Positions 1,120-37,151 of a DNA stretch of 64,000 nucleotides are shown here, one piece after another. Position numbers and translations under genes: made by a program. The stretch comes from an uncultured Eubacteriales bacterium (GTDB taxonomy: Bacteria > Bacillota > Clostridia > Christensenellales > Aristaeellaceae): positions 6,924-70,923 of the forward strand of contig CADBCY010000032.1 in assembly GCA_902793325.1 (NCBI GenBank), given 5' to 3'. The notes beneath the pieces are model-generated. The model searched no databases. It was not told where the DNA came from and saw only the letters and a list, made by a program, of their open reading frames with translations. Numbering within the stretch: the stretch's first letter is position 1; the number at the start of each line of letters is the position of its first letter.

Positions 1120-1148
1120 GGGTATTCCTCCAAACTGAGCGTCGGCGC

Positions 1149-1703
1149 TCACACGCTGTCGGTGTCTTCGTTGTCCTGGGCCAGCAGCGTCAGCCGGCGC
1201 AGCTCCTCCCAGCGGTGCCAGTGCACCGGGTTCACGTATTCCCGCCATGCCTCGAAGTCGCCCGCGATCAGGTGGCCGCGCAGCTCGGAGGCGGAGATGT
1301 CGATGGTCTTGGGCACGTAGAGCTCCGCGATGGACAGCCCCTCCACGTGGTCGAACCAGTTCTTGCGGCGCTCCTCCTTGCCGGACACCAGCAGGTCCGG
1401 CAGCATGCCGAAGACCCGGCGCACGCTGTCCAGCACGTAGTCGCCCCAGGCGCCGTTGTTGCCCACGCCGATGTCCGGCAGCGGCGCGACCCGCAGCGTG
1501 CCGGGGAAGGCTTCCTCCAGCATGTCCCGCCTGAGGGCGTAGGGGAAGGGGTTCACCCGCGTGCCCGACTCCTGCGACGAGCCCACGAACAGCCCCACGC
1601 GGTCGCACAGCTCCAGGGCCTTGCGGATCATGTCCTCATGGCCGGTGTGCAGGGTCTGGAATCGCCCCACCAGGATGCCCAGGGCATAGGGCTTGTTCTC
1701 CAT
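1149..1703 (-). CDS. nicotinamide/nicotinate-nucleotide adenylyltransferase, NadM-like cytidylyltransferase family
   Basis: ORF 1149..1790, trimmed to ATG 1703 (GGGAGG upstream). The motif LGILVGRFQTLHTGHEDMI is the (H/T)xGH nucleotidyltransferase signature. The gene lies directly upstream of pncB, giving an NAD salvage pair. Confidence 0.7.
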   Translation of the reverse strand: MENKPYALGILVGRFQTLHTGHEDMIRKALELCDRVGLFVGSSQESGTRVNPFPYALRRDMLEEAFPGTLRVAPLPDIGVGNNGAWGDYVLDSVRRVFGMLPDLLVSGKEERRKNWFDHVEGLSIAELYVPKTIDISASELRGHLIAGDFEAWREYVNPVHWHRWEELRRLTLLAQDNEDTDSV

Positions 1704-1844
1704 AATGGCCTCCCGCGCCGCGGCTATGGCGCGGCATTCCATAAAAAGATAGCACAATTTCGGGGGACTGTCAAGGCCGGTTTTCCGCATCTACGACGGA
1801 AAAAACCCCGCGCTCGCGGGGAGCGCGGGGGATGGCGCGGGGCG

Positions 1845-3284
1845 TCACCGGCGGATGATGACGGTGGTGCCCTCGGGGCAGTTGTCGAAGATCCACTTGG
1901 CGGATTTCACGGTCAGGCGGATGCAGCCGTGGGACGCGCGGTGGCCCAGGGCGTGCACCGACGAGCGGGTGGGGCCCTTCTTGCTGGAGCTGTAGATGAC
2001 GGAGTGGAACATCACGCCGCCCACGATGCGGGTCGCCCACTTCACGTAGACGTTGGAATCCTGCATGTAGTACCATTCCTTGCCGTTGGCCTTGCCGTCG
2101 GCCTGGTAGTGGCCCAGCGGGGTGGGGGTGCCCACCTTGCCGGTGGAGCACTTGAACTTCTGCACCAGCTTGGAGTAGTCCTTGCCGGTCCACTTGGCCA
2201 CGTACACGCGCTGGTCAGAGATGTCCACCCAGATCTTGTAGGGGAACACGTACTCCTCGGCCTGCGGGGGATTGGCGCTGAACAGGGCGCGCTGGGTCTT
2301 TTCGTCGGCGATACCGGTCTGCTTGAGGCCGCACTTGCGCTGGAAGTACATGAGGGCGTACTTGGTCAGGTTGCCGTAGGCGCCGTCGGGCTTGTACAGG
2401 TAGTTCAGCGAGCGGAGCCTGCGCTGTACGCGCCAGACCTCGTCGCCGGTGTCGCCCTTCTGCACGGTGTAGCGGTAGATGGCAAAGGGCTTCTCGCCGT
2501 TGATGTAGCGCATCAGCGCCTCGTCGATGTCGCCGTCGATGTCGCCGGTCACGCCGTCGTCCAGCGTCAGCAGCTCATCCTCCACCACGGGCATGCCCAT
2601 CACGTCCTCCGGCTCGGGGGTGACGGTGGGCTGGGCCGCGGCCGCCGCGGCGGACAGGCCGTAGGAGGGGTCGATGGCGGAGATGTAATTCTTGAACGCC
2701 CGCACGGCGCGCGCGGTGCTGTCGCCGTAGGTACCGTCCACGGCGCTCTCCAGGAAGCCCCACTGGGCCAGCATGCTCTGCACGCGGGTGGTGTCGCTGC
2801 CGAACATAGAGGCGCTCTGCGAAGCGCGCACCAGCGTGGAGTCGTCCTGGTAGATGCGGTTCTGGGTGGCGGAGTCGGCGATGCCGGTGGCGGGTAGGCC
2901 GTTGTTCTTCTGGAACTGCTTGACGGCGATCTCGGTGTTGGCGCCATAGGTGCCGTCGGCGGTGTCGCGCAGGTAGCCCAGCTCGATCAGCCGGTTCTGC
3001 AGGAACACGATGTAGGACATGCCGTCGTCGGCGTCGCTGTCGCCCAGCGAGAGCATCGGGTACTGGGTGCCGGTCTCCAGGCCCAGGTCCGCGGTGGTAT
3101 AGGAGGTCTGCGCCGGGGTGGCGACGCCGTCGGTGGAGCCGTAGATGGCGTTGTTGTCCACGAACTCGGTCTGGGCGTCGTTCCCGAAGAGCATATCCTC
3201 GGCGGTGGTGGCCAGCGCGGGCTGACCCAGCGCGGCGACCAGCAGCGAAGTCATCAGCAGCAGGCAGAGCATGCGACGTTTCAA
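1845..3284 (-). CDS. secreted L,D-transpeptidase (YkuD domain) with three peptidoglycan-binding (PG_binding_1-like) repeats
   Basis: 479 aa. Signal peptide MKRRMLCLLLMTSLLVAALG (TTG start, GGAGG 9 nt upstream). Three LxxLGYL...DGxYGxxTxxAVxxFQ repeats. C-terminal catalytic block HSVIYSS...ALGHRASHGCIRL. Confidence 0.9.
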   Translation of the reverse strand: MKRRMLCLLLMTSLLVAALGQPALATTAEDMLFGNDAQTEFVDNNAIYGSTDGVATPAQTSYTTADLGLETGTQYPMLSLGDSDADDGMSYIVFLQNRLIELGYLRDTADGTYGANTEIAVKQFQKNNGLPATGIADSATQNRIYQDDSTLVRASQSASMFGSDTTRVQSMLAQWGFLESAVDGTYGDSTARAVRAFKNYISAIDPSYGLSAAAAAAQPTVTPEPEDVMGMPVVEDELLTLDDGVTGDIDGDIDEALMRYINGEKPFAIYRYTVQKGDTGDEVWRVQRRLRSLNYLYKPDGAYGNLTKYALMYFQRKCGLKQTGIADEKTQRALFSANPPQAEEYVFPYKIWVDISDQRVYVAKWTGKDYSKLVQKFKCSTGKVGTPTPLGHYQADGKANGKEWYYMQDSNVYVKWATRIVGGVMFHSVIYSSSKKGPTRSSVHALGHRASHGCIRLTVKSAKWIFDNCPEGTTVIIRR

Positions 3285-23089: not shown

Positions 23090-23143
23090 CGCGGCGCGGC
23101 GGGGGAAGAATTCCCGGGGAAGCGGATTCGCGCGTTTTCCCGC

Positions 23144-23172
23144 TTGATTTTTCGGCGCATATCCGCTATCAT
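23144..23172 (+). promoter_or_regulatory. sigma-70-type promoter TTGATT-17-TATCAT for the plus-strand signalling operon
   Basis: TTGATTtttcggcgcatatccgcTATCAT, about 110 nt upstream of ATG 23286. Confidence 0.5.
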
Positions 23173-23285: not shown

Positions 23286-24767
23286 ATGTTGAACCGGGCG
23301 ATCTACGCAATGATCTATCTAGGCAGTGCTCTGATGGTCTACAACATCTATGACTTTGTCCGCTACACCCAGTACATCCAGGCCAGGAAGGACTGGGGCC
23401 GGGAGCGCGCCGTGCTCTACGTGCCCCTGGCACTGCTGGTCATGTTCCTGTTGGGTTACCTGGCCGTGAGCATCTTCGGCAAGCCGGACCTGATCGTGTC
23501 GGGCATCCTCTTCGGCGGGAGCATCTTCGTGTTCATCATCTTCAAGCTCCTGTGGCGCATCACCCACCACATTCAGGAGAACGAGCAGACGGAAGCGAAG
23601 CTGATGGCGGCGGAGGCCAGCAACAGGGCCAAGTCCAGCTTCCTGTCCAACATGAGCCACGAGATGCGCACCCCGATGAACGCCATCATCGGCCTGGACA
23701 ACATCGCGCTGCAGGACGAGACCCTGACGCCGCAGACGCGGGACCGGCTGCAGAAAATCGGCGTCAGCGCCCAGCACCTGATGGACCTGATCAACGACGT
23801 GCTGGACATGAACCTCATCGAATCGGGGCAGATGACGCTGAAGCACGAGCCGTTCTCCATGCGCGAGGCGCTTGGCCTGGTGGACCTGCTGCTCCAGTCC
23901 AGGTGCGACGAGAAGGGCCTGGAATACAAGAAAGAAGTGCTCGACGGGGTCGAGGAGGTGTACGTGGGCGACGCCCTCCGCCTCAGGCAGGTGCTGCTGA
24001 GCATCCTGGGGAACGCCGTGAAGTACACGCCCGCCCCCGGCACCGTGACCTTCACGACGGAGCAGGTCTCGGCCGCGGAGGACCGGCGCGAGCTGTGCTT
24101 CACCATCCGCGACACCGGCATCGGCATGGAGGAGGACTTCATCCCGCGGCTGTTCGATTCCTTCACCAAGGAGGACGCCGGCACCACCGACCGCTTCGGC
24201 GGGAGCGGGCTGGGGCTGGCGATCACGAAGCGGCTGGTGGACCAGATGGGCGGAACCATCGAGGTCCTAAGCCGCAAGGACGAGGGCAGCACGTTCGTCG
24301 TCACCCTCCCGCTCGGCGCGGCGAAGCCGCCGGAGGGATCCGCGGAGGAGCCTGCGCCGGAGTGCCTGCCCGACCTCGAGGGGCGGCGCGTGCTCATCGT
24401 CGAGGACATCGACCTGAACGCGGAGATCCTGGCGGACCTGCTGGAGATCGAGGGCGCCGAAACCGAGCGGGCGGAGAACGGGCAGATCGCCGTGGAGCAG
24501 TTTTCCAGCCATCCCGTGAACTACTACGACGCGATCCTGATGGATCTTCGAATGCCCGTGATGGACGGCATGGACGCCACCCGTGCGATCCGCGCGCTGG
24601 ACCGCCCGGACGCAAAGACGATCCCCATCGTCGCCCAGACCGCGAATGCCTACGAGGAAGACCTGCAGCATTCGCTGGAAGCCGGTATGAACGAACACCT
24701 GTCTAAGCCGCTGGACGCGGAACGGTTGTACGATACGCTGCGAAGGCTGATCGGAAAGCTGCGATGA
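23286..24767 (+). CDS. hybrid sensor histidine kinase (3 TM helices, HisKA, HATPase_c, receiver)
   Basis: 493 aa. H-box FLSNMSHEMRTPMNAIIG, N-box LGNAVKYT, G-boxes RDTGIGM and GGSGLGLAI. C-terminal receiver VLIVEDIDLN...ILMDLRMPVMDG...HLSKP. Confidence 0.92.
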   Translation: MLNRAIYAMIYLGSALMVYNIYDFVRYTQYIQARKDWGRERAVLYVPLALLVMFLLGYLAVSIFGKPDLIVSGILFGGSIFVFIIFKLLWRITHHIQENEQTEAKLMAAEASNRAKSSFLSNMSHEMRTPMNAIIGLDNIALQDETLTPQTRDRLQKIGVSAQHLMDLINDVLDMNLIESGQMTLKHEPFSMREALGLVDLLLQSRCDEKGLEYKKEVLDGVEEVYVGDALRLRQVLLSILGNAVKYTPAPGTVTFTTEQVSAAEDRRELCFTIRDTGIGMEEDFIPRLFDSFTKEDAGTTDRFGGSGLGLAITKRLVDQMGGTIEVLSRKDEGSTFVVTLPLGAAKPPEGSAEEPAPECLPDLEGRRVLIVEDIDLNAEILADLLEIEGAETERAENGQIAVEQFSSHPVNYYDAILMDLRMPVMDGMDATRAIRALDRPDAKTIPIVAQTANAYEEDLQHSLEAGMNEHLSKPLDAERLYDTLRRLIGKLR

Positions 24768-24819: not shown

Positions 24820-26517
24820 ATGATTATTTCCAATCAGCTGAGGAGACCGCGCCTGGTGCTGATTGTGGACGATCAGGAGATCAACCGCGACGTGCTGGGC
24901 ATGATCCTGGAAGATGATTACGAGATCATCTACGCCACCAACGGCAGGGAGGCCCTCGAGATGATCGAGGAGAACCTGGACCGCCTGTCGGTGGTGCTGC
25001 TGGATTTGATCATGCCGGAGATGGACGGCTTCAAGGTGCTCGACATCGTGCGCAACGACGAGTTCCTCAAGCGCATCCCGATCATCGTGCTGACGGCGGA
25101 GAAGAACGCCGAGCTTCGCGCGCTGCAGATGGGCGCGGCGGACTTCATCACCAAGCCCTTCGAGATGCACGAGGTCATCCTCGCGCGCGTGGGCAGGATC
25201 ATCGAGCTGAGCGAGGGCAGGCAGCTCATCTCCGCGGCGGAGCACGACCGGCTGACCATGCTCTACAGCAAGAGCTTCTTCTTCGAGTACGCCAACCGGA
25301 TCCACCAGTACCACCCCGAGTGGCACATGGACGCCGTGGTGATGGACATTAACCAGTTCCACACCATCAACGAGCTGAACGGCCGCGAGTTCGGCGACAA
25401 CGTGCTGCGCATCCTGGGCAACGAGATCCGCGCCTTCCTGGGCGAGACGGAGGGCATCGCCAGCCGCTTCGAGGCGGACCGCTTCGACCTGTACTGCATG
25501 CACCAGGCCGATTACCAGCAGTTGCTCGACCGCTTCCAGGAGAAGGTGAACACCCTCTCGCGCAACGCCAGCATCCGGCTGCGCATGGGCGTGAACCCCT
25601 GGCAGGAGGGCGTTGACCCGCTGCTGCTGTTCGACCGCGCCCGCGCGGCGTGCAACATGGTGCGGGGCGACTATAAGACGAACCTCATGGTGTACGACGA
25701 GGACATGCGCAACCACGAGCTTTTGAACCAGCGGCTGCTGAACGACTTGCAGCGCGCGGTGGACGAGCGCGAGTTCTGCGTGTTCTACCAGCCCAAGTTC
25801 AACGTCCAGTGCGACCCGCCGAAGCTGTCCAGCGCGGAGGCGCTGATCCGCTGGAAGCACCCGGAGCTGGGCATGATCTCCCCCGGCTGCTTCATCCCGC
25901 TGTTCGAGAGCAACGGCCAGATCGGCACCGTGGACAACTTCGTGTGGAACGAGGCGGCGCGGCAGATCGCCGACTGGCGCGATCGGCTGGGCGTGGTCGT
26001 GCCGGTGTCGGTGAACCTGTCCCGGGTGGACGTGTTCGACCCGGCGCTGGAGGACACGCTGACCGGCATCGTCGAACGAAACGGGCTGGACTACAAGAGC
26101 ATGAAGCTGGAGGTCACGGAGTCCGCCTACACCGACAACGCCGGGCAGATCATCGGGCTCATCAACCGCCTGCGCAGCATGGGCTTTGAAATCGAGATGG
26201 ACGACTTCGGCTCGGGCTATTCCTCGCTGAACATGCTCTCCTCCATGCCCATCGACGTGCTGAAGATGGACATGGAGTTCGTGCGGAACATCGAGCACAG
26301 CGAGAAGGACTTCCGCCTGGTGGAGGTCGTGCTGGACATCGCCAGGTACCTGAAGGTGCCGGTGGTGGCCGAGGGCGTGGAGACGCAGCGGCAGATGGAG
26401 CTGCTGCGCGATGCCGGCTGCCAGCTCGTGCAGGGCTATTACTTCTCCCGCCCGCTGCCGCCGGCGGACTTTGAAAAGCTGATACTCAGAGAAAAGGAGA
26501 TTGTGAGGGAGAACTGA
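24820..26517 (+). CDS. response regulator with receiver, degenerate GGDEF and EAL domains (predicted c-di-GMP phosphodiesterase)
   Basis: 565 aa. Receiver LVLIVDDQEINRD...LLDLIMPEMDGF...TKP. The GGDEF-position motif reads RFEADRF, so it is degenerate. EAL-domain blocks: YQPK, EALIRW, EVTES, DDFGSGYSSL, LKMD, EGVET, QGYYFSRP. Confidence 0.9.
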   Translation: MIISNQLRRPRLVLIVDDQEINRDVLGMILEDDYEIIYATNGREALEMIEENLDRLSVVLLDLIMPEMDGFKVLDIVRNDEFLKRIPIIVLTAEKNAELRALQMGAADFITKPFEMHEVILARVGRIIELSEGRQLISAAEHDRLTMLYSKSFFFEYANRIHQYHPEWHMDAVVMDINQFHTINELNGREFGDNVLRILGNEIRAFLGETEGIASRFEADRFDLYCMHQADYQQLLDRFQEKVNTLSRNASIRLRMGVNPWQEGVDPLLLFDRARAACNMVRGDYKTNLMVYDEDMRNHELLNQRLLNDLQRAVDEREFCVFYQPKFNVQCDPPKLSSAEALIRWKHPELGMISPGCFIPLFESNGQIGTVDNFVWNEAARQIADWRDRLGVVVPVSVNLSRVDVFDPALEDTLTGIVERNGLDYKSMKLEVTESAYTDNAGQIIGLINRLRSMGFEIEMDDFGSGYSSLNMLSSMPIDVLKMDMEFVRNIEHSEKDFRLVEVVLDIARYLKVPVVAEGVETQRQMELLRDAGCQLVQGYYFSRPLPPADFEKLILREKEIVREN

Positions 26518-26518: not shown

Positions 26519-26887
26519 ATGACGATTCAGGAGCTGTATGCCAAGATCGGGGGCAACTACGATCAGGCCGTTCGGATCATGAAGTCGGAGCGGCTCATCG
26601 ACAAGTACGTGCGCAAGCTGAAGAGCAGCGGCGTGGGCGAAAAGCTGGCGGAGGCCGGCGAGTCGATGGACGCGGGCAAGCTGTTTGAGAGCGCGCACGC
26701 CATGAAGGGCGTCTGCTCCAACCTGGGGCTGGACGGCCTGGCCGGCGCCGCGGACGAGATCACCGAGGAATTCCGCCCCGGCAACCCGCGCAAGCTTTCG
26801 GACGAGGCGGTAAAGGAGAAGCTCCGGGACATCGACGAGCGCTATCGCGCCGCGGTGGAGGGCATCCGCCAGTACGAGGAAGGATAA
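26519..26887 (+). CDS. stand-alone Hpt (histidine phosphotransfer) protein
   Basis: 122 aa. SAHAMKGVCSNLGL fits the HxxKG phosphotransfer motif. ATG 26519 lies 1 nt after the stop of the preceding gene. Confidence 0.8.
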   Translation: MTIQELYAKIGGNYDQAVRIMKSERLIDKYVRKLKSSGVGEKLAEAGESMDAGKLFESAHAMKGVCSNLGLDGLAGAADEITEEFRPGNPRKLSDEAVKEKLRDIDERYRAAVEGIRQYEEG

Positions 26888-27024
26888 CAAACCCTATCTG
26901 AAAACAGTATATCCCCGGCTTTGAAAAGTTCGACGGAGCGCGTTCCCGATGGCGGGAAGGCGCGGTTCAGCATGGCGAGCGCGCGTCGCCGGGGCGTCGG
27001 CGCTCGGGAACGGGAAGGGATTTT

Positions 27025-30000
27025 ATGACGATGCGGACGGCGAAACAGGGGAACGAGGGCCTGTCGCGCTACCTGTCGCCCCTCGGCGCCTGGGCGCTTG
27101 CGTTTGGCTGCAGCGTGGGCTGGGGCGCCTTTGTCATGCCCGGCACCACGTTCCTGCCGGTCGCGGGGCCGATGGGCACGGTGCTGGGCATCGCCATCGG
27201 CGCGGTGATCATGCTGGTCATCGGCATGAACTTCCACTTCCTGATGAACCGCTACCCCGACGCCGGCGGCACCTACGCCTACGCCAAGTGCAACTTCGGC
27301 TACGACCACGGCTACCTCAACGCCTGGTTCCTGCTGCTGACCTACGTGGCCATCATCTGGGCGAACGCCACGGCGCTGCCGCTGATCGCGCGGCACCTGT
27401 TCGGCTCGCTGTTCCAGGTTGGCTGGCACTACGAGATCGCGGGCTACCAGATCTACATGGGCGAGGCGTTCCTGGCCATCGCCGCGCTGCTGGCCACCGG
27501 GCTTATCTGCCTGCGGGGCAAGGTGGCCGCCCGGGTGCAGATCCTGATGGCGCTGGTGCTGCTGGGCGGCATCGCGGTGTGCATCGTCGCGGCGGCGACG
27601 CACTCCCGGGGCGGGATGAACGCCGTCTCCCCGCCCTATGCGCCCGAGGGCGCACCGCTGGAGGGCGTGTTCACGATCGTCGCCCTCGCGCCGTGGGCGT
27701 ATGTGGGCTTTGAGTCCATCTCCCACTCCGCCGGCGAGCTCGACTTCTCCCTCAAGCGGAGCTTCCGCATCATGGCCGTCGCGGTCGTCACGGCCGCCGT
27801 GGCCTACGGCGCGCTGGCGCTGCTGGCCGTGACCGTGCTGCCGGAGGACTGCGCGAGCTGGACGGACTACATCTTCAACCTGGGCCGCTACGAGGGCATC
27901 CGGGGCCTGCCCACCTTCTTCTCCGCGGAGTCGCTGATGGGCACCGCGGGCGCCGTGGTGCTGGGGCTGACCACGCTGGGCGCGATCTTCACGGGCCTGG
28001 TGGGCAACACCGTGGCCTCCAGCCGCCTGCTCTACGCGCTGGCGCAGGACGACATGCTTCCCGCGTGGTTCGGGAAACTGAACCGGAATCGCGTGCCCTT
28101 CCACGCCGTGCTGTTCGTGACGGGCATTTCGGTGGTGCTGCCCTTCTTCGGCCGCACGGCCATCAGCTGGATCGTGGACGTGACCACCGTGGGCGCGACC
28201 ATCGCCTATGCCTACGCCTCCGCCGCGGCGCTGAAGGCCGCGCGCCGGGAGGGCGACCGGCTGGTGACGGCCACGGGCCTGGCGGGGCTGGTGATCTCCC
28301 TCGTCTTCGTGCTGTACTTCCTGATCCCCAACCTCATGGCGGTGAAGACGCTCTCCACCGAGTCGTACCTGATCCTGGCCGCGTGGGGCATCCTGGGCTT
28401 CCTGTTCTTCCTGTACCTGTTCCGCAGGGACGGCGAGCGCCGGCTGGGGCGGTCCCCGGTGGTGTGGGTGGTGCTGCTGGCGCTGATTATATTCACCTCC
28501 ACCATCTGGATGCGCCAGGCCACCGAGACCGCCACGGAGGAGGCCGTGACGCCCATCCATACGTTCTACAGGGAGCGCCTGGAGGAGGAGGGCGTGGACA
28601 TCGTGTCCATGGCCACCAAGCCCGCGGACAGCTACCTGCGCGAGGTGCTGGACGACGTGGGGGACCAGTTGACCCGCAACAGCCTGATCCAGACCGCGCT
28701 GATCGTGGTGGCGCTGGCGATACTGTTCTACATCTACTACCTGATGCAGAAGCGGGAGAAGCAGATCGAGGTAGAGAAGGCGCTGGCCGAGGAGAGCAGC
28801 CGCGCCAAGACCAGCTTCCTGTCCAACATGAGCCATGAGATCCGCACGCCGATGAACGCCATCATCGGCCTGGACAACATCGCGCTGAAGGACCCGGACC
28901 TGTCGCCGCACACGCGCGAGCAGCTGGAGAAGATCGGCTCCAGCGCCAGGCACCTGCTGGGGCTCATCAACGACATCCTGGACATGAGCCGCATCGAGTC
29001 CGGGCGCATGGTGCTCAAGAGCGAGGAGTTCAGCTTCCGCGATTTCCTGGACCAGATCAACGTGATGATCAACGGCCAGTGCGCGGACAAGGGGCTCGAT
29101 TTCGATTGCCACATCATCGGCCGGGTGAACGACTATTACATCGGCGACGACATGAAGCTCAAGCAGGTGATGATCAACATTCTGGGCAACGCCGTCAAGT
29201 TCACCCCGGTGCCCGGCACGATCACCTTCACGGTGGAGCAGATCGCGGAGTTCGAGGAGTACTGCACGCTGCGGTTCATCATGAAGGACACCGGCATCGG
29301 CATGAGCAAGGAGTACATCCCGAAGATCTTCGAGGCATTCTCCCAGGAGAACAACGGCGCCGCGAACCGGTACGGCAGCACGGGCCTGGGCATGGCCATC
29401 ACGAAGAACATCGTGGAGATGATGAACGGCGAGATCGCGGTGGAGAGCGAGAAGGGCGTGGGCACCGCGTTCACCGTCACCGTGACGCTGAAGGCCTCCG
29501 CGCGCAGCGTGCACATGGAGCACGGGCACGTGCTGCCCAAGGGCCTGCGCGTGCTGGTGGTGGACGACGACGAGATCGCCTGCGAGCACGCCAGGCTGGT
29601 CGCGGGCAACATCGGCATCGAGGCGGAGGCCGTGCAGAGCGGCAGGGAAGCGCTCGAGCGCATCGCGTCGGTGCGCAACCAGGGCTGCCCCTTCGACTTC
29701 GTGCTGACCGACTACAAAATGCCCGGCATGGACGGCATTGAGCTGACGCGGGCCATTCGCGCCTTCGACGGCGGCGAGACGGCCGTCATCGTGCTGACCG
29801 GCTATAGCTGGGACGACATGCAGGCCGAGGCCCGGGAGGCGGGCGTGGACGGCATCATGTCCAAGCCGCTGTTCACGGAAAGCCTGCTCCGCGAAATCCG
29901 CGGCATACTGGAGCGGCGCGAGTCCGTCGCCAACCCCGACCTGGTGACGGAGAAGCTTCCGGAGCCTCCGGCGAACGCGCTGGCGGGCCTTCGCATGCTG

Positions 30001-30411
30001 ATCGCGGAGGACATGGAGATCAACGCGGACATCCTGATGGACCTGCTGGAGATGGAGGGCATGGTCACCGAGCACGCGGAGAACGGGCAGGTCGCGGTGG
30101 AGATGTTCGCGGCCAACCCCGCGGGCTACTACGACGCGGTGCTGATGGACGTGCGCATGCCGGTGATGGACGGCCTCGAGGCCACCCGCGCCATCCGCGG
30201 GCTGGACCGGCCGGACGCCGGGACGGTGCCCATCATCGCCATGACGGCCAACGCCTTCGACGAGGACGTTCAGCGCTCCCTGCAGGCGGGCATGTCGGCG
30301 CACCTGACGAAGCCCGTGGAGCCGGAGCGGCTCTACGATACCCTGAGGAGACTGGTTTGCACCGCCGGGGAAACCGATCCGGCGGGGAAGGAGGAAGGCG
30401 CGGCGCCGTGA
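27025..30411 (+). CDS. APC-family amino-acid-permease-like domain fused to a hybrid histidine kinase with two receiver domains
   Basis: 1128 aa. About the first 480 aa form a polytopic transporter fold (AFGCSVGWGAFVMPG..., YPDAGGTYAYA, about 12 hydrophobic spans). Then H-box FLSNMSHEIRTPMNAIIG, N-box LGNAVKFT, and KDTGIGM/GSTGLGMAI. Receiver 1 is VLVVDDDEI...LTDYKMPGMDG...SKP. Receiver 2 is MLIAEDMEIN...LMDVRMPVMDG...HLTKP. Confidence 0.88.
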   Translation: MTMRTAKQGNEGLSRYLSPLGAWALAFGCSVGWGAFVMPGTTFLPVAGPMGTVLGIAIGAVIMLVIGMNFHFLMNRYPDAGGTYAYAKCNFGYDHGYLNAWFLLLTYVAIIWANATALPLIARHLFGSLFQVGWHYEIAGYQIYMGEAFLAIAALLATGLICLRGKVAARVQILMALVLLGGIAVCIVAAATHSRGGMNAVSPPYAPEGAPLEGVFTIVALAPWAYVGFESISHSAGELDFSLKRSFRIMAVAVVTAAVAYGALALLAVTVLPEDCASWTDYIFNLGRYEGIRGLPTFFSAESLMGTAGAVVLGLTTLGAIFTGLVGNTVASSRLLYALAQDDMLPAWFGKLNRNRVPFHAVLFVTGISVVLPFFGRTAISWIVDVTTVGATIAYAYASAAALKAARREGDRLVTATGLAGLVISLVFVLYFLIPNLMAVKTLSTESYLILAAWGILGFLFFLYLFRRDGERRLGRSPVVWVVLLALIIFTSTIWMRQATETATEEAVTPIHTFYRERLEEEGVDIVSMATKPADSYLREVLDDVGDQLTRNSLIQTALIVVALAILFYIYYLMQKREKQIEVEKALAEESSRAKTSFLSNMSHEIRTPMNAIIGLDNIALKDPDLSPHTREQLEKIGSSARHLLGLINDILDMSRIESGRMVLKSEEFSFRDFLDQINVMINGQCADKGLDFDCHIIGRVNDYYIGDDMKLKQVMINILGNAVKFTPVPGTITFTVEQIAEFEEYCTLRFIMKDTGIGMSKEYIPKIFEAFSQENNGAANRYGSTGLGMAITKNIVEMMNGEIAVESEKGVGTAFTVTVTLKASARSVHMEHGHVLPKGLRVLVVDDDEIACEHARLVAGNIGIEAEAVQSGREALERIASVRNQGCPFDFVLTDYKMPGMDGIELTRAIRAFDGGETAVIVLTGYSWDDMQAEAREAGVDGIMSKPLFTESLLREIRGILERRESVANPDLVTEKLPEPPANALAGLRMLIAEDMEINADILMDLLEMEGMVTEHAENGQVAVEMFAANPAGYYDAVLMDVRMPVMDGLEATRAIRGLDRPDAGTVPIIAMTANAFDEDVQRSLQAGMSAHLTKPVEPERLYDTLRRLVCTAGETDPAGKEEGAAP

Positions 30412-30450
30412 GCGCGCGCGTGCGATAAACGAGAAGTGGAGGGCGGCACC

Positions 30451-31317
30451 ATGACAGAGACGACGATCGCGCGAAACCTGGGCATCATGTACGCGGAGGA
30501 GAGCGGCAGCGGGCTGCTGCATCCGTTCTTCGCCCTGATCCTGAACGCATTCAAGAGCGAGGCCGAGGCCCATGGCTACGACATCACGTTCATCAACGGG
30601 ACCGGCGAGTGGGAAGCCGGGAGCTATGCCGAGCACTGTCGGCAGCGCGGCGTGGACGGCCTGTGCATCGTCTGCGCGGACTACGCGGACCCGCGGATCA
30701 AGGCGCTGGCCACCTGCGGCATGCCCTGCGTCACCGTGGATCACATCTTCAAGGGCGTGCCCGCGGTGCTGTCGGACAACGAGACGGGCATGCAGAAGCT
30801 GGTGGAGTTCGCCATCTCGAAGGGCCACCGCCGCATCGCGTTCGTGCACGGGCACAACAACTCCATCGTCACGCGCACGCGCATCGGCCAGTTCAAGAAC
30901 ACCATGGCGTACCACGAGCTGCCCGTGACCCCGGACGACGTGGTCGACGGGCTGTACCACGACATCGCGCTCACGCGCAAGCTCGTCGGCGAGCTGCTGC
31001 GCCGGCCCGACCGGCCCACCTGCATCATACTGCCGGACGACATGTGCTTCCTCGGCGCGCAGGAAGCGGCGCGCGTGCTGGGGCTGCGCATTCCCGAGGA
31101 CATCTCCTTCGGCGGCTACGACGGCATCCCCATGACGCAGGCGCTCTCGCCCAGGCTGACCACCATTCGCCAGAGCTGCGTGGACATGGGCAAGGTGGCC
31201 GCACAGCGGCTGATCGACCGGATCGAGCGCCCCGAAACCGCCTCCAACAAGCCCAACATCTTCCCGGTGGAGCTGCTCGAGGGCGGCACGATCGCCCCGC
31301 CGGGAGGCGCATCCTAA
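30451..31317 (+). CDS. LacI/PBP-type sugar-binding domain protein lacking the N-terminal HTH
   Basis: 288 aa from ATG 30451 (GGAGGG 7 nt upstream; the track uses GTG 30436). Typical LacI core blocks are present (GHRRIAFV..., ...GYDGIPMTQALSPRLTTIRQ). Only 40 nt separate it from the upstream stop, which leaves no room for a DNA-binding domain. Confidence 0.75.
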   Translation: MTETTIARNLGIMYAEESGSGLLHPFFALILNAFKSEAEAHGYDITFINGTGEWEAGSYAEHCRQRGVDGLCIVCADYADPRIKALATCGMPCVTVDHIFKGVPAVLSDNETGMQKLVEFAISKGHRRIAFVHGHNNSIVTRTRIGQFKNTMAYHELPVTPDDVVDGLYHDIALTRKLVGELLRRPDRPTCIILPDDMCFLGAQEAARVLGLRIPEDISFGGYDGIPMTQALSPRLTTIRQSCVDMGKVAAQRLIDRIERPETASNKPNIFPVELLEGGTIAPPGGAS

Positions 31318-31335
31318 CATATGTCAGCATAATAC

Positions 31336-31369
31336 AAGACCACCGGCTGGACCGGTGGTCTTATGTTTT
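31336..31369. terminator. hairpin terminator shared by the two convergent signalling operons
   Basis: AAGACCACCGG-ctgga-CCGGTGGTCTT followed by ATGTTTTG. Confidence 0.7.
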
Positions 31370-31403: not shown

Positions 31404-33155
31404 TCATGCCCGGGGGCCGCTTTGGAGCTGCCGCGCGAGCTCCCCTTCCAGCGTTTCGCCCCGGACGGGCTTGGACAGGTAGCCGTCGAAGCCCTCCTGC
31501 AGGCACAGCCTTTCCATCTCCGCGCCGACGTTCGCGGTCAGGCAGACGACCCTGCTGTCCCGGCACAGGCCGCCCGCCTGCGCCCGGATCCGGTGCAGGC
31601 ACTCGACGCCGTCCATCTCCGGCATCTGGTGGTCCATCAGGATCACGTCGTAGCGCGTTTCCAGCGTCTTTTGCAGCGCTTCGGCGCCGCTGGCGGCGGT
31701 GTCGACGGCCACCTTCGTGTCCCGGAGCAGCTTCTTCACCACCATCAGGTTCATCGGCGTGTCGTCCACCGCCAGCACGCGCGCGTCCTGCGCGACGAAC
31801 GCGCTGTCGCGGCTGGCCTCCGGCGTCCGCGCGCGCCTGCCCAGATCGACCGCGCCGACCGGCCGCGCGTCCGCGACGCCCTGCGGGATCTCGATGTGGA
31901 AGACCGTGCCCTTCCCGTACACGCTCTCGACGCGCACGCTGCCGCCCATCATGTCCAGCAGCTGCTTCACGATCGACAGTCCCAGGCCCGTGCCCTCGAT
32001 GTGGTGCGTCTTCTGCGCGTCTGCGCGGTGAAAGGCGGTGAACAGGTGGGGGATGTCCTCCTCGCGGATGCCGATGCCCGTGTCGGCGACGTCGTACAGC
32101 GCGGTGAAGCCGCCGTCGGCGTCCGTGCGCCCGGCGATGGACAGCGTGACCGAGCCCTCCCGCGTGTACTTCACCGCGTTGGTGATCACGTTGAGCAGGA
32201 TCTGCTTGACGTGCATTTCGTCCCCGCGCAGCGCGGTGGGGAGCGCGAGATCGACCTCGACGCGGAATTCGAGCCCCTTCTCCTGCGCGCGCAGCCAGAC
32301 CATGCTCACGATGTCGGACAGTATCGCGGTGGTGGCGTAGTCGGCGGACACGATCTCCATGCTGCCCGTCTCCAGCCGGGACAGGTCCAGGATCTCGTTG
32401 ATGGTGTGCAGCAGCGTCTTGCCGGCCACCTCGATGTTGCGCGCGTTCTCCAGCACCTCGTCGGGGAGCGGTTCGCGCAGCGTCATCTCATTCAGGCCGA
32501 TGATGGCGTTCACGGGCGTGCGGATCTCGTGGCTCATGCTGGAGAAGAAGCGCTTCTGCGCGCCGTTCAGCTCCTCGATCTCCTTCTTCTGCTTTTGCAC
32601 GATGCGGTTTTCGGTGCGGTACACCCCGGTGACGAACGCGAACAGCGTGCACAGCAGCAGCGCGACCAGCAGGATCGACAGGAACGATTCGACCTGCTCG
32701 GCCTGCGCCGTGTGCCGGACCAGCAGCCCCGGGCGCAGGTACGACAGCGCGTAGCACGCGCCGGTGAACGCGACGCACAGCGCCATCGTCGCCGCGCGCG
32801 CCCAGCCCTCCGTCGCCAGGAACACGTAGACCAGCGCGAAGGCGAACACCACCGGCGCGCCGCCGTACATCCCGCCGGAGGAGAAGAACGTCAGCGGGTA
32901 CATCAGGAAGTAGAGCAGCCCCGAAACCGCCGAGCCCGCGCGCATCCTTCCGCTCCTGAACGTGAGCGCCACCGTCGCGGCGAAGGCCACGGTGCCCGCC
33001 AGCATCAGCGCGATGTGGCCCGCGCTGCCGCCGAAGAGGATCGTGTAGGCGGAGACCAGCACGAATTCCGCCAGCGCGATCGTCGACAGCAGTTGGAACA
33101 GCCGCGCCCGCAGGCTGACCTCCGGGTCCAGCATGCGTTTCATCCTGTGCTTCAT
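31404..33155 (-). CDS. hybrid sensor histidine kinase (multi-TM N-terminus, HisKA, HATPase_c, receiver)
   Basis: ORF 31404..33521 trimmed to MKHRMKRML (ATG 33155). About 6 hydrophobic spans. H-box FFSSMSHEIRTPVNAIIG, N-box ITNAVKYT, ADTGIGI, GTGLGLSI. Receiver VLAVDDTPMN...LMDHQMPEMDG...YLSKP. Confidence 0.9.
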   Translation of the reverse strand: MKHRMKRMLDPEVSLRARLFQLLSTIALAEFVLVSAYTILFGGSAGHIALMLAGTVAFAATVALTFRSGRMRAGSAVSGLLYFLMYPLTFFSSGGMYGGAPVVFAFALVYVFLATEGWARAATMALCVAFTGACYALSYLRPGLLVRHTAQAEQVESFLSILLVALLLCTLFAFVTGVYRTENRIVQKQKKEIEELNGAQKRFFSSMSHEIRTPVNAIIGLNEMTLREPLPDEVLENARNIEVAGKTLLHTINEILDLSRLETGSMEIVSADYATTAILSDIVSMVWLRAQEKGLEFRVEVDLALPTALRGDEMHVKQILLNVITNAVKYTREGSVTLSIAGRTDADGGFTALYDVADTGIGIREEDIPHLFTAFHRADAQKTHHIEGTGLGLSIVKQLLDMMGGSVRVESVYGKGTVFHIEIPQGVADARPVGAVDLGRRARTPEASRDSAFVAQDARVLAVDDTPMNLMVVKKLLRDTKVAVDTAASGAEALQKTLETRYDVILMDHQMPEMDGVECLHRIRAQAGGLCRDSRVVCLTANVGAEMERLCLQEGFDGYLSKPVRGETLEGELARQLQSGPRA

Positions 33156-33169
33156 GCGCGCGCCCCCCG

Positions 33170-33529
33170 TCAGTCCAGCGCGGCGCGCACCGCGCCGACC
33201 AGCGCCCCCAGGTCCGCCAGGAAGGCGCCGTGGGCGGCGAGCACGGCGTCCGCGTCGCCGGCCTTCGCGGCGTCTTCCAGCGCCTTCGCGCGCTGCGACA
33301 GCGCCGTCGCGCCGATCGTGCGCGAGGTGCTCTTGAGGGAATGCGCGCGGATGCGATAGTTGTCCCAGTCCCGCGCCGCGCAGAACCGCTCCAGCTCCCC
33401 GAGCTTCGCCGCGGCGTCGCGCACGAATTCGCCGAGCATCTCCGCGTAGAATTCCCCATCCTCCGCGCAGCAGGCCATGCCCGCCCCGGTGTCGATGCCG
33501 CAGGCCCGCAGCCGATCCCAATTCAGCAC
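33170..33529 (-). CDS. stand-alone Hpt (histidine phosphotransfer) protein
   Basis: In frame with ORF 33170..33793. GTG 33529 is preceded by GGAGG and overlaps the upstream stop (GTGCTGA). RAHSLKSTSRTIGA fits the HxxKG motif. Confidence 0.75.
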   Translation of the reverse strand: MLNWDRLRACGIDTGAGMACCAEDGEFYAEMLGEFVRDAAAKLGELERFCAARDWDNYRIRAHSLKSTSRTIGATALSQRAKALEDAAKAGDADAVLAAHGAFLADLGALVGAVRAALD

Positions 33530-34539
33530 GTTCCGTCCTCCCTCATTCGGTAGTCCCCGTCCTCGTCGATCATCTTCAGCATGATGGCGGCAAAGCGGGG
33601 GTCGAGCTGGCTGCCCGCGCAGCGCTCGATCTCCGCGCGGACGTGCGCCTGCGGCAGCGCCTGGCGGTAGCTGCGGTTGCTCGTCATGGCGTCGTAGGTG
33701 TCCGCGACGGCGATGATCCGCGCGACCTCCGGGATGTCCTCCCCGGCGAGACCGTCGGGGTAGCCGCGCCCGTCGTAGCGCTCGTGGTGCCACCGCGCCC
33801 CGATCACAAGCTCCGGGAAATCGGTGATGTTCTTCAGGATGTCCGACCCGACGGCGGGGTGCGTCTTGATCTGCGCGTACTCCTCGTCGGTCAGGCGGCC
33901 GTTTTTGTTGATGATGGCGTCCTGCACGCCGATCTTGCCCACGTCGTGCAAGAGGCCCATCATGTAGACCCGCTCCTGCCCGGCGTCGCTGAAGCCCGCG
34001 CGCCGGGCGATTTCCCGGGCGTAGACCGCGACGCGCGCGGAATGGCCGTGGGTGTACTTGTCCTTGGCGTCCACGGAGGCCGCCAGCGCCTGCACGATCT
34101 GCAGCCAGGCGCGCGACAGCTTCTCCGTCTTTGCGCGGATCTCGCGGGCCATGTCGACGTGCAGGCGGTTGAGCTCGATGATGTTGCCCACGCGCTTGAG
34201 CAGCACCTCCGCCGCGAACGGCTTGCGGATGAAGTCCGACGCCCCCGCCTGCAGGCCCTCGCTCTCGGTTCGCACGTCCTCGTCGCCCGTCAGGAAGGCG
34301 ACGGGCACGTTCCGGAAGCGCGCGTCCGTGCGCAGCCGCTTCAGCAGGTCGATGCCGTTGGCGTCCGGCATGTGCACGTCCAGCAGGATCAGGTCGGGGG
34401 GATCGGCCCCGTCCGGGCGCGCGAACAGCTCCCCGCCGGAGGTGCAGTATTCGCCCTCGATCCCGGCCCGGTCAAACACCCGCCTGGCGATGCGCAGGCT
34501 CATGGCGTCGTCATCGACGACGATGATTCTGGTCTTCAC
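33523..34539 (-). CDS. response regulator with receiver and HD-GYP domains (predicted c-di-GMP phosphodiesterase, RpfG-like)
   Basis: Receiver IIVVDDDAMS...LLDVHMPDANG...RKP. HD-GYP blocks HGHSARVAVYA, LLHDVGKIGV and HHERYDGRGYPDGL. I prefer GTG 34539 (GGGAG upstream) over the track ATG 34569, which has no RBS. Confidence 0.9.
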   Translation of the reverse strand: MKTRIIVVDDDAMSLRIARRVFDRAGIEGEYCTSGGELFARPDGADPPDLILLDVHMPDANGIDLLKRLRTDARFRNVPVAFLTGDEDVRTESEGLQAGASDFIRKPFAAEVLLKRVGNIIELNRLHVDMAREIRAKTEKLSRAWLQIVQALAASVDAKDKYTHGHSARVAVYAREIARRAGFSDAGQERVYMMGLLHDVGKIGVQDAIINKNGRLTDEEYAQIKTHPAVGSDILKNITDFPELVIGARWHHERYDGRGYPDGLAGEDIPEVARIIAVADTYDAMTSNRSYRQALPQAHVRAEIERCAGSQLDPRFAAIMLKMIDEDGDYRMREDGTC

Positions 34540-34589
34540 GTTCGCTCCCAGCCTTTCCGGTTGCCGCATGCGCGGGGTCGCAGGGGATG

Positions 34590-34852: not shown

Positions 34853-35713
34853 TCAGCAGTTTCCGGTGTACACGTATTTCAGGCTCTCCCGCGCGACGTC
34901 GGCGAGGCGGTAGACGCGGCGCACGTCCGTCGCCGGGCGGTCGGTCATGTGAAAGCGCGGGAAGAAGCGCGAGATGTGCAGCGGGATGTCCCCGCCGATG
35001 CGCCGGCCGTCCGTATCCTCCAGCCCCGCGACCCAGTCCGCCAGCGCGCGCATTTCGTCCTCGGAATCGTTCTCGCCGGGCACGACCAGCGTGGTCAGCT
35101 CCACGTGGCAGCGCTGCGCGGCCCGGGCGACGAACGCCTTCACCATGCCGAGGCTGCCGCCCAGCACGCGCGCATAGTAGCGGTCGGTGAAGCCCTTGAG
35201 GTCGATGTTCATGGCGTCGATGTACGGCGCGAGGGCCTCCAGCACGTGAAGCTCCGCCGTGCCGTTGGTGACCAGCGCGTTCACAAGCCCCGCTTCCCGG
35301 GCCAGCTTCGCCGCGTCGCGCACGTATTCCCAGCCGACCAGCGGCTCGTTGTAGGTGAACGCCAGCCCGATGTTGCCGCGGGGCTTCAGGCGGACCGCCG
35401 CCCGCACCAGCGCTTCCGGGGAGACGCTCTCGGCGCGCCCGGCGAGGCGCATGGCCTCCGGCGACCAGGAGATTTCGTGGTTCTGGCAGAAGGGGCAGCG
35501 CAGGTTGCAGCCGTAGCTGCCCGCCGAGAGGATCATGCTCCCGGGGTGGAAGCGCCGCAGCGGCTTCTTCTCGACGGGGTCCAGCGCCAGCGCGGTGATC
35601 CGGCCGTAATTCTCCGCGACCACCCTGCCGTCCGCGCACGCGCGCGCGCCGCAGAAGCCCCGGCGGCCTTCGGGGATGTCGCAGTGGTGGAAGCAAACGT
35701 CGCAACGGGCCAT
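34853..35713 (-). CDS. amrS: AmmeMemoRadiSam system radical SAM enzyme
   Basis: 286 aa. N-terminal Cys-rich MARCDVCFHHCDIPEGRRGFCGAR and radical SAM CxxxCxxC motif GCNLRCPFCQNHEIS. PFL-activase-like fold. Adjacent to an AMMECR1-domain gene. Confidence 0.85.
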   Translation of the reverse strand: MARCDVCFHHCDIPEGRRGFCGARACADGRVVAENYGRITALALDPVEKKPLRRFHPGSMILSAGSYGCNLRCPFCQNHEISWSPEAMRLAGRAESVSPEALVRAAVRLKPRGNIGLAFTYNEPLVGWEYVRDAAKLAREAGLVNALVTNGTAELHVLEALAPYIDAMNIDLKGFTDRYYARVLGGSLGMVKAFVARAAQRCHVELTTLVVPGENDSEDEMRALADWVAGLEDTDGRRIGGDIPLHISRFFPRFHMTDRPATDVRRVYRLADVARESLKYVYTGNC

Positions 35714-35756
35714 ATCGCGTCCTCCGCAGGGTCGGGACGGGGTGGGAAAGGGTCGG

Positions 35757-37151
35757 TCAAGTGTGTCGGACGACCTCGAAGCGCTGCAATTCGACCTTCT
35801 CGTGCGGGCCGATGCCGGCCTTGCGGCGGGCGATGTCCACCTGCTGCGCCACGGTATCCACGCCGTCCAGGTCCGGCAGCAGCAGTCCCCGGCGGTGGCC
35901 CCGGGTCACGATCACGCCGTAGCGCTTCACGTCGAGCTGGGCCTCGGAGGCGATGGGCTCCGGTTCCCCCAGCACGTCCACGTGGATCTCCAGCCACTTG
36001 AGCTCGTCGGGGCGGATGGGGTCGAAGCGCGGGTCGCGAGAGGCGGCGCTGACGGCGTTGCAGACGATCTCCTCCGCCAGGCTGTCCTGCGTGGGCGAGA
36101 TGGTGCCGATGCAGCCGCGCAGCCGGCCCTGCTTGTGGATGGACACGAACGCGCCCGCCCGCTGCGCGCGCAGCGCCTCTGGCAGGTCGTCGGGGACGCG
36201 CGCCCGTTCGTGGCGGAGCACCCAGGATTCCACCGACTGCCACGCCAGCCGCACCCACGGGTCGCAGCGGCCGCGCGCCTCGGCGAGCTGCGTTTCCTGC
36301 GCCCGGAGGCGTTGGTCCAGGAAGCGGCGGCGGTCGTCGCGCGCGCCGGGGCGGAAGGCGCAGACGCCGTAGCCCACGCCGGTGACGTCCTCGTGGGAGA
36401 ACGCCTCCGCCGCCACGGCCGTGCCGTCCAGCGCGCCGGCCATCATCACGAAGGACCGGTGGCCGCACTCCGCCGCGCGCTCGCAGAAGGCCTCGTCGAA
36501 GTCGAACAGCTCCCCGAACGCCGCGCGGCCGCAGACGTCCATGATCCGCGCGTCGTACTGCGGGCCCTCCGGCGCGAAGCCGTAGGGGCCGTAGTCCCGC
36601 AGCTTGTGGGAGAGGTCGCCGCTGGCCACGAACACCGCCCGGTGCCCGGTCTCCTCAACCGCCCGCCGGACGAGCTGCCCCAGCCGGTAGTGATCCTCCA
36701 GCGGCAGCCCGGACAGCCCGATCCGCACCAGGCGGAACGCGGAATATGCCTGCCGGATGAAGTACAGCGGCACCATCGTGCCGTGATCCAGCGCGGGGTC
36801 GCGCGCTCCGCGGGTGCCCGCGGGCAGGTTTTCGGCGATCGCCAGGCGCTCGACGGCCGCGACCAGCTCCGCGTCGTAGGACTCCCGGAAGCGCACCTGC
36901 GGCGCCCGGAAGCGCTCGAAGGAGCCCTCCGCGCCGCGGCCGGGGGAGATGTGGAAGTAGTCCGCGTACATCGTGGCGTGCGGGCTGGAGAGGATGACCG
37001 TCTCCGGCGCCAGCGCCGCGATCTCGCGCGCCACGCGGGCGTAGGCCGCGCGCGTGGCCTCGATCTGCGCCTCGCCGCCGCGGCCCACCTCGGGCACGAT
37101 CATCGGCGGGTGGGGCACCATGTAAGCAGCCAGTATGGGCATGGCGATCAC
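35757..37151 (-). CDS. fusion of a class III extradiol dioxygenase/Memo-like domain with an AMMECR1 domain (AmmeMemoRadiSam system protein A type)
   Basis: 464 aa. The N-terminal half (AAYMVPHPPMIVPEVG...) is LigB/Memo-superfamily-like. The C-terminal half GAFVSIHKQGRLRGCIGT...RDPRF...YGVIVTRGHRRGLLLPDL is the AMMECR1 signature. Confidence 0.85.
   Translation of the reverse strand: MIAMPILAAYMVPHPPMIVPEVGRGGEAQIEATRAAYARVAREIAALAPETVILSSPHATMYADYFHISPGRGAEGSFERFRAPQVRFRESYDAELVAAVERLAIAENLPAGTRGARDPALDHGTMVPLYFIRQAYSAFRLVRIGLSGLPLEDHYRLGQLVRRAVEETGHRAVFVASGDLSHKLRDYGPYGFAPEGPQYDARIMDVCGRAAFGELFDFDEAFCERAAECGHRSFVMMAGALDGTAVAAEAFSHEDVTGVGYGVCAFRPGARDDRRRFLDQRLRAQETQLAEARGRCDPWVRLAWQSVESWVLRHERARVPDDLPEALRAQRAGAFVSIHKQGRLRGCIGTISPTQDSLAEEIVCNAVSAASRDPRFDPIRPDELKWLEIHVDVLGEPEPIASEAQLDVKRYGVIVTRGHRRGLLLPDLDGVDTVAQQVDIARRKAGIGPHEKVELQRFEVVRHT

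Follow-up and report, generated by a model that had tools for sequence, protein, structure and literature searches.

Can an amino acid permease fold serve as the input domain of a bacterial sensor kinase? This question is raised by a 64,000-nucleotide (nt) stretch of contig CADBCY010000032.1 (hereafter the window, with all window coordinates counted from its first letter). Within it, a single gene at 27025..30411 (+) encodes a protein of 1128 amino acids (aa), here called APC-HK, that joins an amino acid permease (APC) fold to a hybrid histidine kinase. The initial annotation of this locus proposed that binding or flux of a substrate through the permease gates the kinase and feeds an adjacent phosphorelay. 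Our comparative results make it probable that the permease domain is the input of a membrane sensor kinase, which would feed an Hpt relay to an EAL protein. APC-HK seems to belong to a large and coherent family of APC-fold sensor proteins, one apparently not yet described. The evidence also tilts, if only slightly, toward the whole APC clade being a dedicated and interchangeable sensory input module. This clade is marked by a tryptophan at the gate in transmembrane helix 1 (TM1) and by two extra helices, and it occurs in anaerobes of at least six phyla in the rumen and gut. Its members would be wired, by fusion or adjacency, to histidine kinases, diguanylate cyclases, EAL or HD-GYP-like phosphodiesterases, and PP2C phosphatases.

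Architecture, integrity and ligand site of the fused protein

As initially annotated, the frame comprises 1128 uninterrupted codons with a single stop at its end. Its GC content at third codon positions (GC3) is 96%, as expected of a real gene in a genome of 65% GC. The permease domain (aa 17-468; 27073..28428, +) was matched in Pfam by AA_permease_2 (PF13520) at aa 17-437 (E 1.6e-27, 97 bits against a cutoff of 27) and by AA_permease (PF00324) at aa 28-465 (84.8 bits against a cutoff of 24.6). Hydropathy placed 12 spans within aa 20-468, followed by TM13 (aa ~477-497), an acidic loop of ~55 aa, and TM14 (aa ~553-575). Since the permease termini are cytoplasmic and strongly basic stretches come after TM12 and TM14, the loop is predicted to be outside, giving 14 TM helices in total. 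The C-terminal half matched HisKA (aa 594-660), HATPase_c (aa 707-822), and two stretches of Response_reg. The order first read from the sequence, an APC-type transporter of ~480 residues and about 12 spans followed by a TM/linker, HisKA, HATPase_c, and two receivers, was thus recovered by Pfam, hydropathy, and motif positions. The motifs quoted at the time fall at aa 26-40 (AFGCSVGWGAFVMPG), aa 80-87 (AGGTYAYA), and aa 603-609 (SHEIRTP).

To examine the fold, we compared a profile of the permease domain with the PDB and found its nearest solved structures by sequence to be CAT1/SLC7A1, plant CAT4, GkApcT, xCT, LAT2, BasC, LysP, and AdiC (E 1.3e-28 for CAT1 and 2.2e-24 for GkApcT). An AlphaFold2 (AF2) model of APC-HK had a mean predicted local distance difference test (pLDDT) score of 74, with the permease part mostly at 75-90. 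Foldseek superposed this part on BasC, AdiC, and GkApcT with target TM-scores of 0.78-0.82 and root-mean-square deviations of 3.9-4.6 Å. The APC (LeuT-like) fold first supposed from the letters was therefore confirmed by profile and model alike, which agree on a complete 12-TM predicted fold of the SLC7/CAT-like, LeuT type at the N-terminus. No NCBIfam equivalog or subfamily model reached its cutoff on the permease part. The best was BcaP, with 66 bits against 690, and all 17 matches were far below their cutoffs; the models scored included ethanolamine permease, ArcD, AdiC, and GabP. With no characterised APC subfamily near its cutoff, the substrate is not inferable by homology.

The connector (28453..28749, +) leads from the permease to the kinase. 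In the AF2 model it forms helices at aa 479-521 and 533-622, the second of which carries TM14 as one unbroken helix into DHp helix 1. No Pfam or NCBIfam domain, and hence no STAC domain, was found in aa 470-590, the region being TM13, loop, and TM14 running into DHp. At least two hydrophobic segments follow TM12 in 80 of 87 fused relatives, with a loop of ~10-62 aa between them.

The kinase core (HisKA/DHp and HATPase_c; 28804..29490, +) has the acceptor H604 within SHEIRTP and intact N (NILGNAVKFT), G1 (DTGIGM), F (FEAF), and G2 (GSTGLGMAI) boxes. Canonical residues are present in REC1 (aa 843-960; 29551..29904, +) as D847, D848, D896, T925, and K947, and in REC2 (aa 990-1107; 29992..30345, +) as E995, D996, D1042, T1074, and K1096. 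Across an alignment of 28 relatives, H604, the four boxes, and the Asp/Lys sets of both receivers show little or no variation. APC-HK therefore has the residues that define a HisKA-class hybrid histidine kinase and is predicted to act as one. Foldseek matched the cytoplasmic half to ShkA, GacS, and HK853, the best being the hybrid kinase ShkA (6qrj, E 3e-21). NCBIfam matches to TorS, BarA, and LuxQ covered the kinase and receiver core only and were far below their cutoffs. REC2 shares 43-49% identity with the lone receiver of distant relatives and 68% with that of a paralogous kinase encoded upstream, while REC1 is only ~32% identical to these receivers. By these identities, REC2 would be the ancestral terminal receiver and REC1 an extra receiver of the subclade of ~1100 aa.

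The simplest objection to such a protein is that neighbouring permease and kinase genes were joined by a sequencing or assembly error. Split permease and kinase pairs do occur in the family, and the loss of a stop codon might in principle give the appearance of a fusion. However, a protein identical to APC-HK is encoded on three contigs, one of them a 65.8-kb scaffold of a cattle-rumen metagenome. A search of 5.8 billion proteins further brought up more than 120 relatives of full length (1076-1137 aa), which are 62-79% identical, share the Pfam domains and continuous architecture of APC-HK, and come from many samples and assemblers. The junction of TM12, a 10-aa linker, and TM13 is itself conserved in sequence across the alignment of 28 relatives. 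Given the three contigs and the many full-length relatives, a frame break or chimeric assembly is effectively excluded, and we regard an artefact as extremely improbable. Database names on the relatives and their clusters are 'amino acid permease', 'APC family permease', or none, and their cluster records include no cultured organism.

To ask whether the ligand site is retained, a point raised by the initial annotation, we mapped site residues onto GkApcT by alignment and counted them in 87 fused and 34 stand-alone-sized clade members. Chain numbering equals the published GkApcT numbering (PMC5803215). In the TM1 segment of APC-HK, G28-C-S-V-G32-W33-G34, the last three residues align with G42-T43-G44 of GkApcT, in which the backbone amides of G42 and G44 bind the substrate carboxylate (PMC5803215). 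In the TM6 segment, P223-W224-A-Y-V-G228-F229-E230, the stretch from W224 to E230 (W-A-Y-V-G-F-E) aligns with F231-A-Y-I-G-F-D237. These G-x-G and G-F-E ligand segments are kept in the clade, with G228 and F229 invariant. W224, the counterpart of the extracellular gate aromatic (GkApcT Phe231, AdiC Trp202), is kept in 81 of the 87 fused members, and R334, the counterpart of the cytoplasmic gate Arg327 in TM8, in 70. Position 230 is Glu or Asp in 83 of 87; the matching Asp237 of GkApcT is essential for transport and conserved in SLC7 (PMC5803215). Conservation of G28, G32, G34, W224, G228, F229, E230, and R334 is alike in fused and unfused members.

Retention was nonetheless partial, in that a tryptophan occupies the TM1 gate and the TM5 lysine is absent. 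The middle residue of the TM1 motif is Trp rather than Thr, Ser, or Ala, with W33 found in 77 of 81 aligned fused and 28 of 34 unfused members. Its position is that of GkApcT Thr43 and AdiC Ser26, a part of the extracellular occlusion and a carboxylate contact (PMC5803215). The TM5 position of GkApcT Lys191 is always hydrophobic in the clade; in GkApcT, the K191A substitution abolishes transport and leaves binding intact (PMC5803215). Likewise, the position of the proton-coupling Glu115 in TM3 holds Thr, Ala, Val, or Ser, as in mammalian CATs. The two replacements suggest, without being decisive, that ApcT-type proton coupling is missing.

At the TM8 selectivity position (GkApcT Met321, Ser in CATs, AdiC Trp293), the clade has Asn (36 members), Phe (24), Leu (7), Tyr (4), or Ser (3). 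APC-HK has N328, and the residue differs by subclade, which suggests that subclades have differing ligands. The conservation pattern indicates that the backbone-binding pocket and gates are held under selection, with clade-specific changes. It is compatible alike with a facilitator or exchanger and with a non-transporting receptor. The CAT-like small or polar pocket residues in TM3 and TM8, together with the conserved acidic E230, are a weak hint that APC-HK binds a cationic or long-chain amino acid or amine.

Outputs of the permease clade and rival readings

If the permease domain is a sensor, it might be expected to occur with other outputs. We searched 1.84 billion cluster representatives with HMMER using aa 1-501 of APC-HK, which yielded 2532 matches at E ≤ 1e-3, 1204 at E ≤ 1e-10, and 412 at E ≤ 1e-30. 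Among the best 150 of these 412, ~95 were longer than a permease and ~43 were of stand-alone size. Architectures were assigned by crude domain mapping and Pfam scans. The commonest fusion partner was HisKA-HATPase-REC, in proteins of ~950-1000 aa, and other kinase fusions ended in HisKA-HATPase-REC-REC or had no receiver. Fusions of the cyclic di-GMP (c-di-GMP) type included GGDEF (~740 aa), PAS-GGDEF (P0196), GGDEF-EAL, and REC-GGDEF-EAL. Rarer architectures joined the APC domain to a LytS-type His_kinase (PF06580) across ~500 unassigned residues (P0213), to the HD-GYP-like HD_5 (P0167), or to a SpoIIE/PP2C phosphatase (P0197 and P0245). In an independent profile search, the permease domain of the large APC-GGDEF subclade was 55-59% identical to that of APC-HK, more than the 41-48% of single-receiver APC kinases. 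Such attachment of a single membrane domain to many unrelated outputs is what one classically sees with sensory input modules.

The stand-alone-sized members offer a second line of comparison. We inspected the gene context of five, and four adjoin a kinase or GGDEF gene. In three independent samples, P0307 (482 aa) lies in the order REC-GGDEF-EAL, Hpt, permease, HisKA-HATPase-REC. Its kinase gene starts 17 bp past the permease stop with an AGGAGG site of its own and encodes two N-terminal TM helices. This arrangement is the APC-HK cassette with the fusion undone. Elsewhere, P0228 overlaps the 3' end of an upstream GGDEF gene by 17 nt, P0244 starts 8 bp after a GGDEF gene, and P0226 is divergently adjacent to a hybrid kinase. 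That the same pair is seen both fused and split argues strongly, on comparative grounds, that the permease fold acts together with the signalling protein. The alternative outputs and the split pairs thereby support the early suggestion that the permease acts as the input.

Named hosts of the clade, all of them metagenome-assembled genomes (MAGs), are Lachnospiraceae, Oscillospiraceae, Ruminococcus, Selenomonadaceae, Solobacterium, Anaerolineaceae/Flexilinea, Treponema, Eggerthellaceae, Victivallales, Kiritimatiellae, and Fretibacterium. A scan of genome contigs with H-box peptide patterns added three distant full-length APC-HK loci (L002, L003, and L014), with 77 of 80 loci matching the kinase core only. 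L014, from a Clostridia MAG, is flanked by a PAS-HK-REC-REC kinase and a REC-GGDEF protein. The same locus encodes, at its positions 1048-2583 (+), a 511-aa protein with an unusual pairing of a MotA_ExbB proton-channel domain and EAL. Ten further loci (L004-L013) encode hybrid kinases with other N-termini and a HisKA-HATPase-REC core 55-61% identical to that of APC-HK. Their hosts are rumen MAGs, Lachnospiraceae, Ruminococcus, Selenomonadaceae, Fibrobacter, and Desulfovibrio. Such identity across very different phyla suggests horizontal spread or domain shuffling within the rumen community.

How might the signal pass through APC-HK? A small solute, probably amino-acid-like or an amine, would bind the conserved TM1/TM6 pocket, and the occupancy or conformational state of the permease domain would be transmitted through TM13 and TM14. 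As TM14 continues into the DHp helix that bears H604, this state could set autophosphorylation in the kinase dimer. The phosphoryl group would then move from H604 to D1042 of REC2, with D896 of REC1 serving as an extra regulatory or sink receiver. From REC2 it would pass to the neighbouring Hpt and on to the REC domain of a REC-(degenerate GGDEF)-EAL protein, switching c-di-GMP hydrolysis. A 493-aa HK-REC paralogue may converge on the same Hpt as a second input.

We lean slightly toward the permease domain being mainly a receptor, with net transport possible and not required, because of the gate tryptophan, the missing TM5 lysine, and the linkage of almost all clade members to signalling. APC-HK might instead be a true transceptor in the sense of CbrA, with an APC domain that transports and with flux, rather than mere occupancy, gating the kinase, so that uptake and signalling of one nutrient are coupled. 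CbrA, which both transports histidine and signals, is a precedent (PMC7096432, PMC13022988). The 12-TM core is full and shows no decay relative to unfused clade members, and the TM1 G-x-G and TM6 G-F-E segments, W224, E230, and R334 are all retained. Against transport stand a Trp at a position of occlusion and carboxylate contact and a hydrophobic residue where the K191A change leaves GkApcT with binding and no transport. In addition, nearly every examined clade member is wired to a signalling protein, so that there is no known plain transporter among them. None of these points is decisive, and AdiC-type exchangers likewise do without that TM5 lysine. We consider a true transceptor possible but on the whole unlikely.

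A different reading is that the permease does not sense at all. The signal would enter through the TM13/TM14 loop, the downstream LacI-type protein, or a partner kinase, and the APC domain would only transport, anchor, or be regulated by the kinase. The succession of TM13, loop, TM14, and DHp does resemble the classical sensor of a two-TM kinase, and loop patches are conserved among close relatives. There is also a binding-protein-like gene in the operon, both here and in the P0009 locus. However, at least seven unrelated types of output occur joined to this clade, and all that they have in common is the APC domain. The loop varies over ~10-62 aa and is only 8 aa long in the split kinase. Moreover, the LacI-type protein lacks a signal peptide, and no gene for it is present at the P0063 or P0090 locus. 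We therefore hold it improbable that the permease is not the sensor.

Several observations weigh against the permease being the sensor that drives the Hpt relay to the EAL protein. The DHp region of the model has low confidence, with pLDDT < 50 for aa 591-662. Close relatives show moderate conservation of the loop (aa 498-552), which might be a sensor in its own right. Among the five stand-alone members, P0251 is without an obvious adjoining signalling gene. Relay partners were assigned from gene order only, and since two Hpt relays to c-di-GMP-type phosphodiesterases lie side by side in the window, cross-talk is possible.

Relation to known transporter-fold sensors

Like the initial annotation, which knew of no characterised APC-fused kinase, we came across no account of a kinase or cyclase fused to an APC or AA_permease domain in open-access full texts, earlier mention elsewhere (domain censuses, TCDB, or InterPro architecture lists) being possible. 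Recent papers call bacterial transporter-fold sensors rare, the cases being CbrA/CrbS, the Amt sensors, and the S-component/5TMR case. CbrA in particular has been described as a rare bacterial 'transceptor' (PMC7096432, PMC5715377, PMC9100948, PMC13022988). A 2024 survey of prokaryotic transceptors and a 2026 paper on the structure of CbrA both consider such proteins rare, and neither mentions an APC-fused class.

The closest parallel is with the SLC5/STAC kinases CbrA, CrbS, and RpuS of Pseudomonas, Vibrio, and Sinorhizobium, in which a complete LeuT-fold transporter is likewise N-terminal to a kinase in one chain; CrbS is also a hybrid kinase. Unlike the 13-TM SSS/SLC5 domain of CbrA and CrbS, the APC-HK transporter is APC/SLC7-type with 12+2 TM helices and has no SSF/SLC5 match in Pfam. 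Those kinases have a STAC linker, whereas in APC-HK neither STAC nor PAS was detected and TM14 runs straight into DHp. Their output is an NtrC-type regulator rather than a predicted Hpt relay to an EAL protein, and their hosts are Proteobacteria rather than gut and rumen anaerobes. The Amt sensors Ks-Amt5 (Amt-histidine kinase) and Sd-Amt1 (Amt-HAMP-GGDEF) similarly use a transporter fold as a membrane input with alternative outputs (PMC5764959, PMC11152129). However, they differ in ligand and have the trimeric Amt/Rh channel fold, which is unrelated to APC, and APC-HK has no Amt domain.

Other parallels involve the APC fold itself. In E. coli, the APC-family permease LysP reports its substrate to the membrane signalling protein CadC, an arrangement that the split operons resemble, and the LysP structure 9eyd is a distant match to the permease domain of APC-HK (E 3.6e-13). 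Yet LysP is a separate, working lysine transporter, and CadC is a ToxR-like one-component regulator rather than a kinase or c-di-GMP enzyme. Germinant receptor B subunits of the GerAB type are also bacterial APC-fold proteins that sense an amino acid. GerAB has been modelled on an L-alanine transporter of the APC superfamily, with bulkier pocket residues mimicking ligand binding (bioRxiv 10.1101/2021.10.28.466322), and the clade-specific Trp33 may offer an interesting parallel. GerAB differs in belonging to a GerA-B-C complex without a kinase and in having spore germination as its output. APC-HK had no Pfam match to Spore_permease at E ≤ 0.01, and its neighbours are two-component and c-di-GMP genes.

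In yeast, Gap1 and Ssy1 (APC superfamily, YAT family) are amino-acid permease folds used in signalling, Gap1 with transport and Ssy1 without. Being eukaryotic, they act through separate PKA or SPS pathways by protein-protein interaction and have no fused signalling domain. On the cytoplasmic side, ShkA of Caulobacter crescentus has the same domain order, DHp-CA-REC1-REC2. In ShkA, a soluble protein, c-di-GMP binds to REC1, which is a pseudo-receiver, whereas REC1 of APC-HK keeps all canonical phospho-acceptor residues, and for this reason we did not adopt ShkA-like c-di-GMP binding for it. TorS and LuxQ kinases differ in receiving a secreted binding protein (TorT or LuxP) on a periplasmic sensor domain, an arrangement that APC-HK does not have.

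If our reading is correct, the family would be a second large class of prokaryotic transporter-fold receptors, hidden by annotation as 'amino acid permease'. A class in which an SLC7-type APC fold serves kinases and c-di-GMP enzymes as a modular input would be both new and abundant. It would be a bacterial equivalent of Gap1 and Ssy1, the eukaryotic APC transceptors, with a direct enzymatic read-out that can be assayed. How the conformational cycle of a LeuT fold is converted into a signal, a long-standing question, would become directly testable. In that case, hundreds of rumen and gut proteins labelled 'amino acid permease' would probably act in signalling, controlling c-di-GMP and, through it, how members of fibre-degrading communities attach or form biofilms. 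The variation at the TM8 selectivity position further suggests that family members sense different nutrients, and such sensors could be mined or engineered.

Operon and neighbouring genes

Given that the proposed output depends on neighbouring genes, we considered how they are arranged. A paralogous hybrid kinase of 493 aa (23286..24767, +) has ~3 N-terminal TM helices, HisKA, HATPase_c, and one REC. It is followed by a REC-GGDEF-EAL protein of 565 aa (24820..26517, +) and by a stand-alone Hpt of 122 aa with the motif HAMKG (26519..26887, +) directly upstream of APC-HK. The Hpt and REC-EAL genes thus lie where the initial annotation had placed them. The order HK-REC, REC-GGDEF-EAL, Hpt, APC-HK is kept in four loci, and relatives at 76%, 65%, and 63% identity have the cassette amid otherwise different neighbours. 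This synteny backs the proposed link to an Hpt/REC-EAL relay, and the REC-GGDEF-EAL gene is conserved in the split version of the cassette as well.

The GGDEF signature of the REC-GGDEF-EAL protein is degenerate (RFEADRF), and its EAL motifs (EAL, DDFGSGYSS, EGVE, and QGYYF) are intact. It is predicted to be the terminal response regulator and a c-di-GMP phosphodiesterase. Because the APC-HK gene sits in a conserved cassette, phosphorelay control of c-di-GMP hydrolysis is its likely output. The kinase cores of the 493-aa paralogue and APC-HK are 53% identical, and the paralogue is likely a second input to the same Hpt. Its N-terminus (23286-23600, +) has ~3 closely spaced TM helices without an extracytoplasmic domain, and it may sense within the membrane or via contact with APC-HK.

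Downstream of APC-HK, a gene at 30451..31317 (+) encodes a 288-aa protein with a LacI-type ligand-binding domain (Peripla_BP_1/3), an accessory and non-conserved member of the operon. The protein has neither a signal peptide nor a helix-turn-helix, and it may be a cytoplasmic accessory of the kinases that binds small molecules. We rejected a role as a LuxP/TorT-like periplasmic partner given the missing signal peptide and the lack of conservation of the gene. Consensus scans placed a terminator-like hairpin (23115-23142) and then a sigma-70-like promoter match (23144-23172) at 23115..23172 (+), the probable start of the unit. A second terminator-like hairpin with an 11-bp stem and then a T-run (31336..31362, +) marks its probable end. 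Together, the hairpins and the promoter-like site probably bracket a transcription unit of five genes.

A second relay is convergent with this unit (31404-34569, -). It comprises a HisKA-HATPase-REC hybrid kinase of 576 aa (31404-33134), an Hpt of 119 aa (33170-33529, -), and a REC-HDOD/HD_5 (HD-GYP-like) protein of 348 aa (33523-34569, -). On the strand opposite APC-HK, an open reading frame (ORF) of 1492 codons (26842-31320, -) spans the whole gene. We rejected it as a real gene, since nothing in Pfam matched it and GC3 is 96% in the sense frame, and regard it as a shadow ORF; many long shadow ORFs are to be expected with 65% GC in the window and such a GC3. Farther along the window (34853-37142, -), a Radical_SAM protein (286 aa) adjoins a LigB + AMMECR1 fusion (461 aa), a pairing that we take to be reminiscent of the AmmeMemoRadiSam system.

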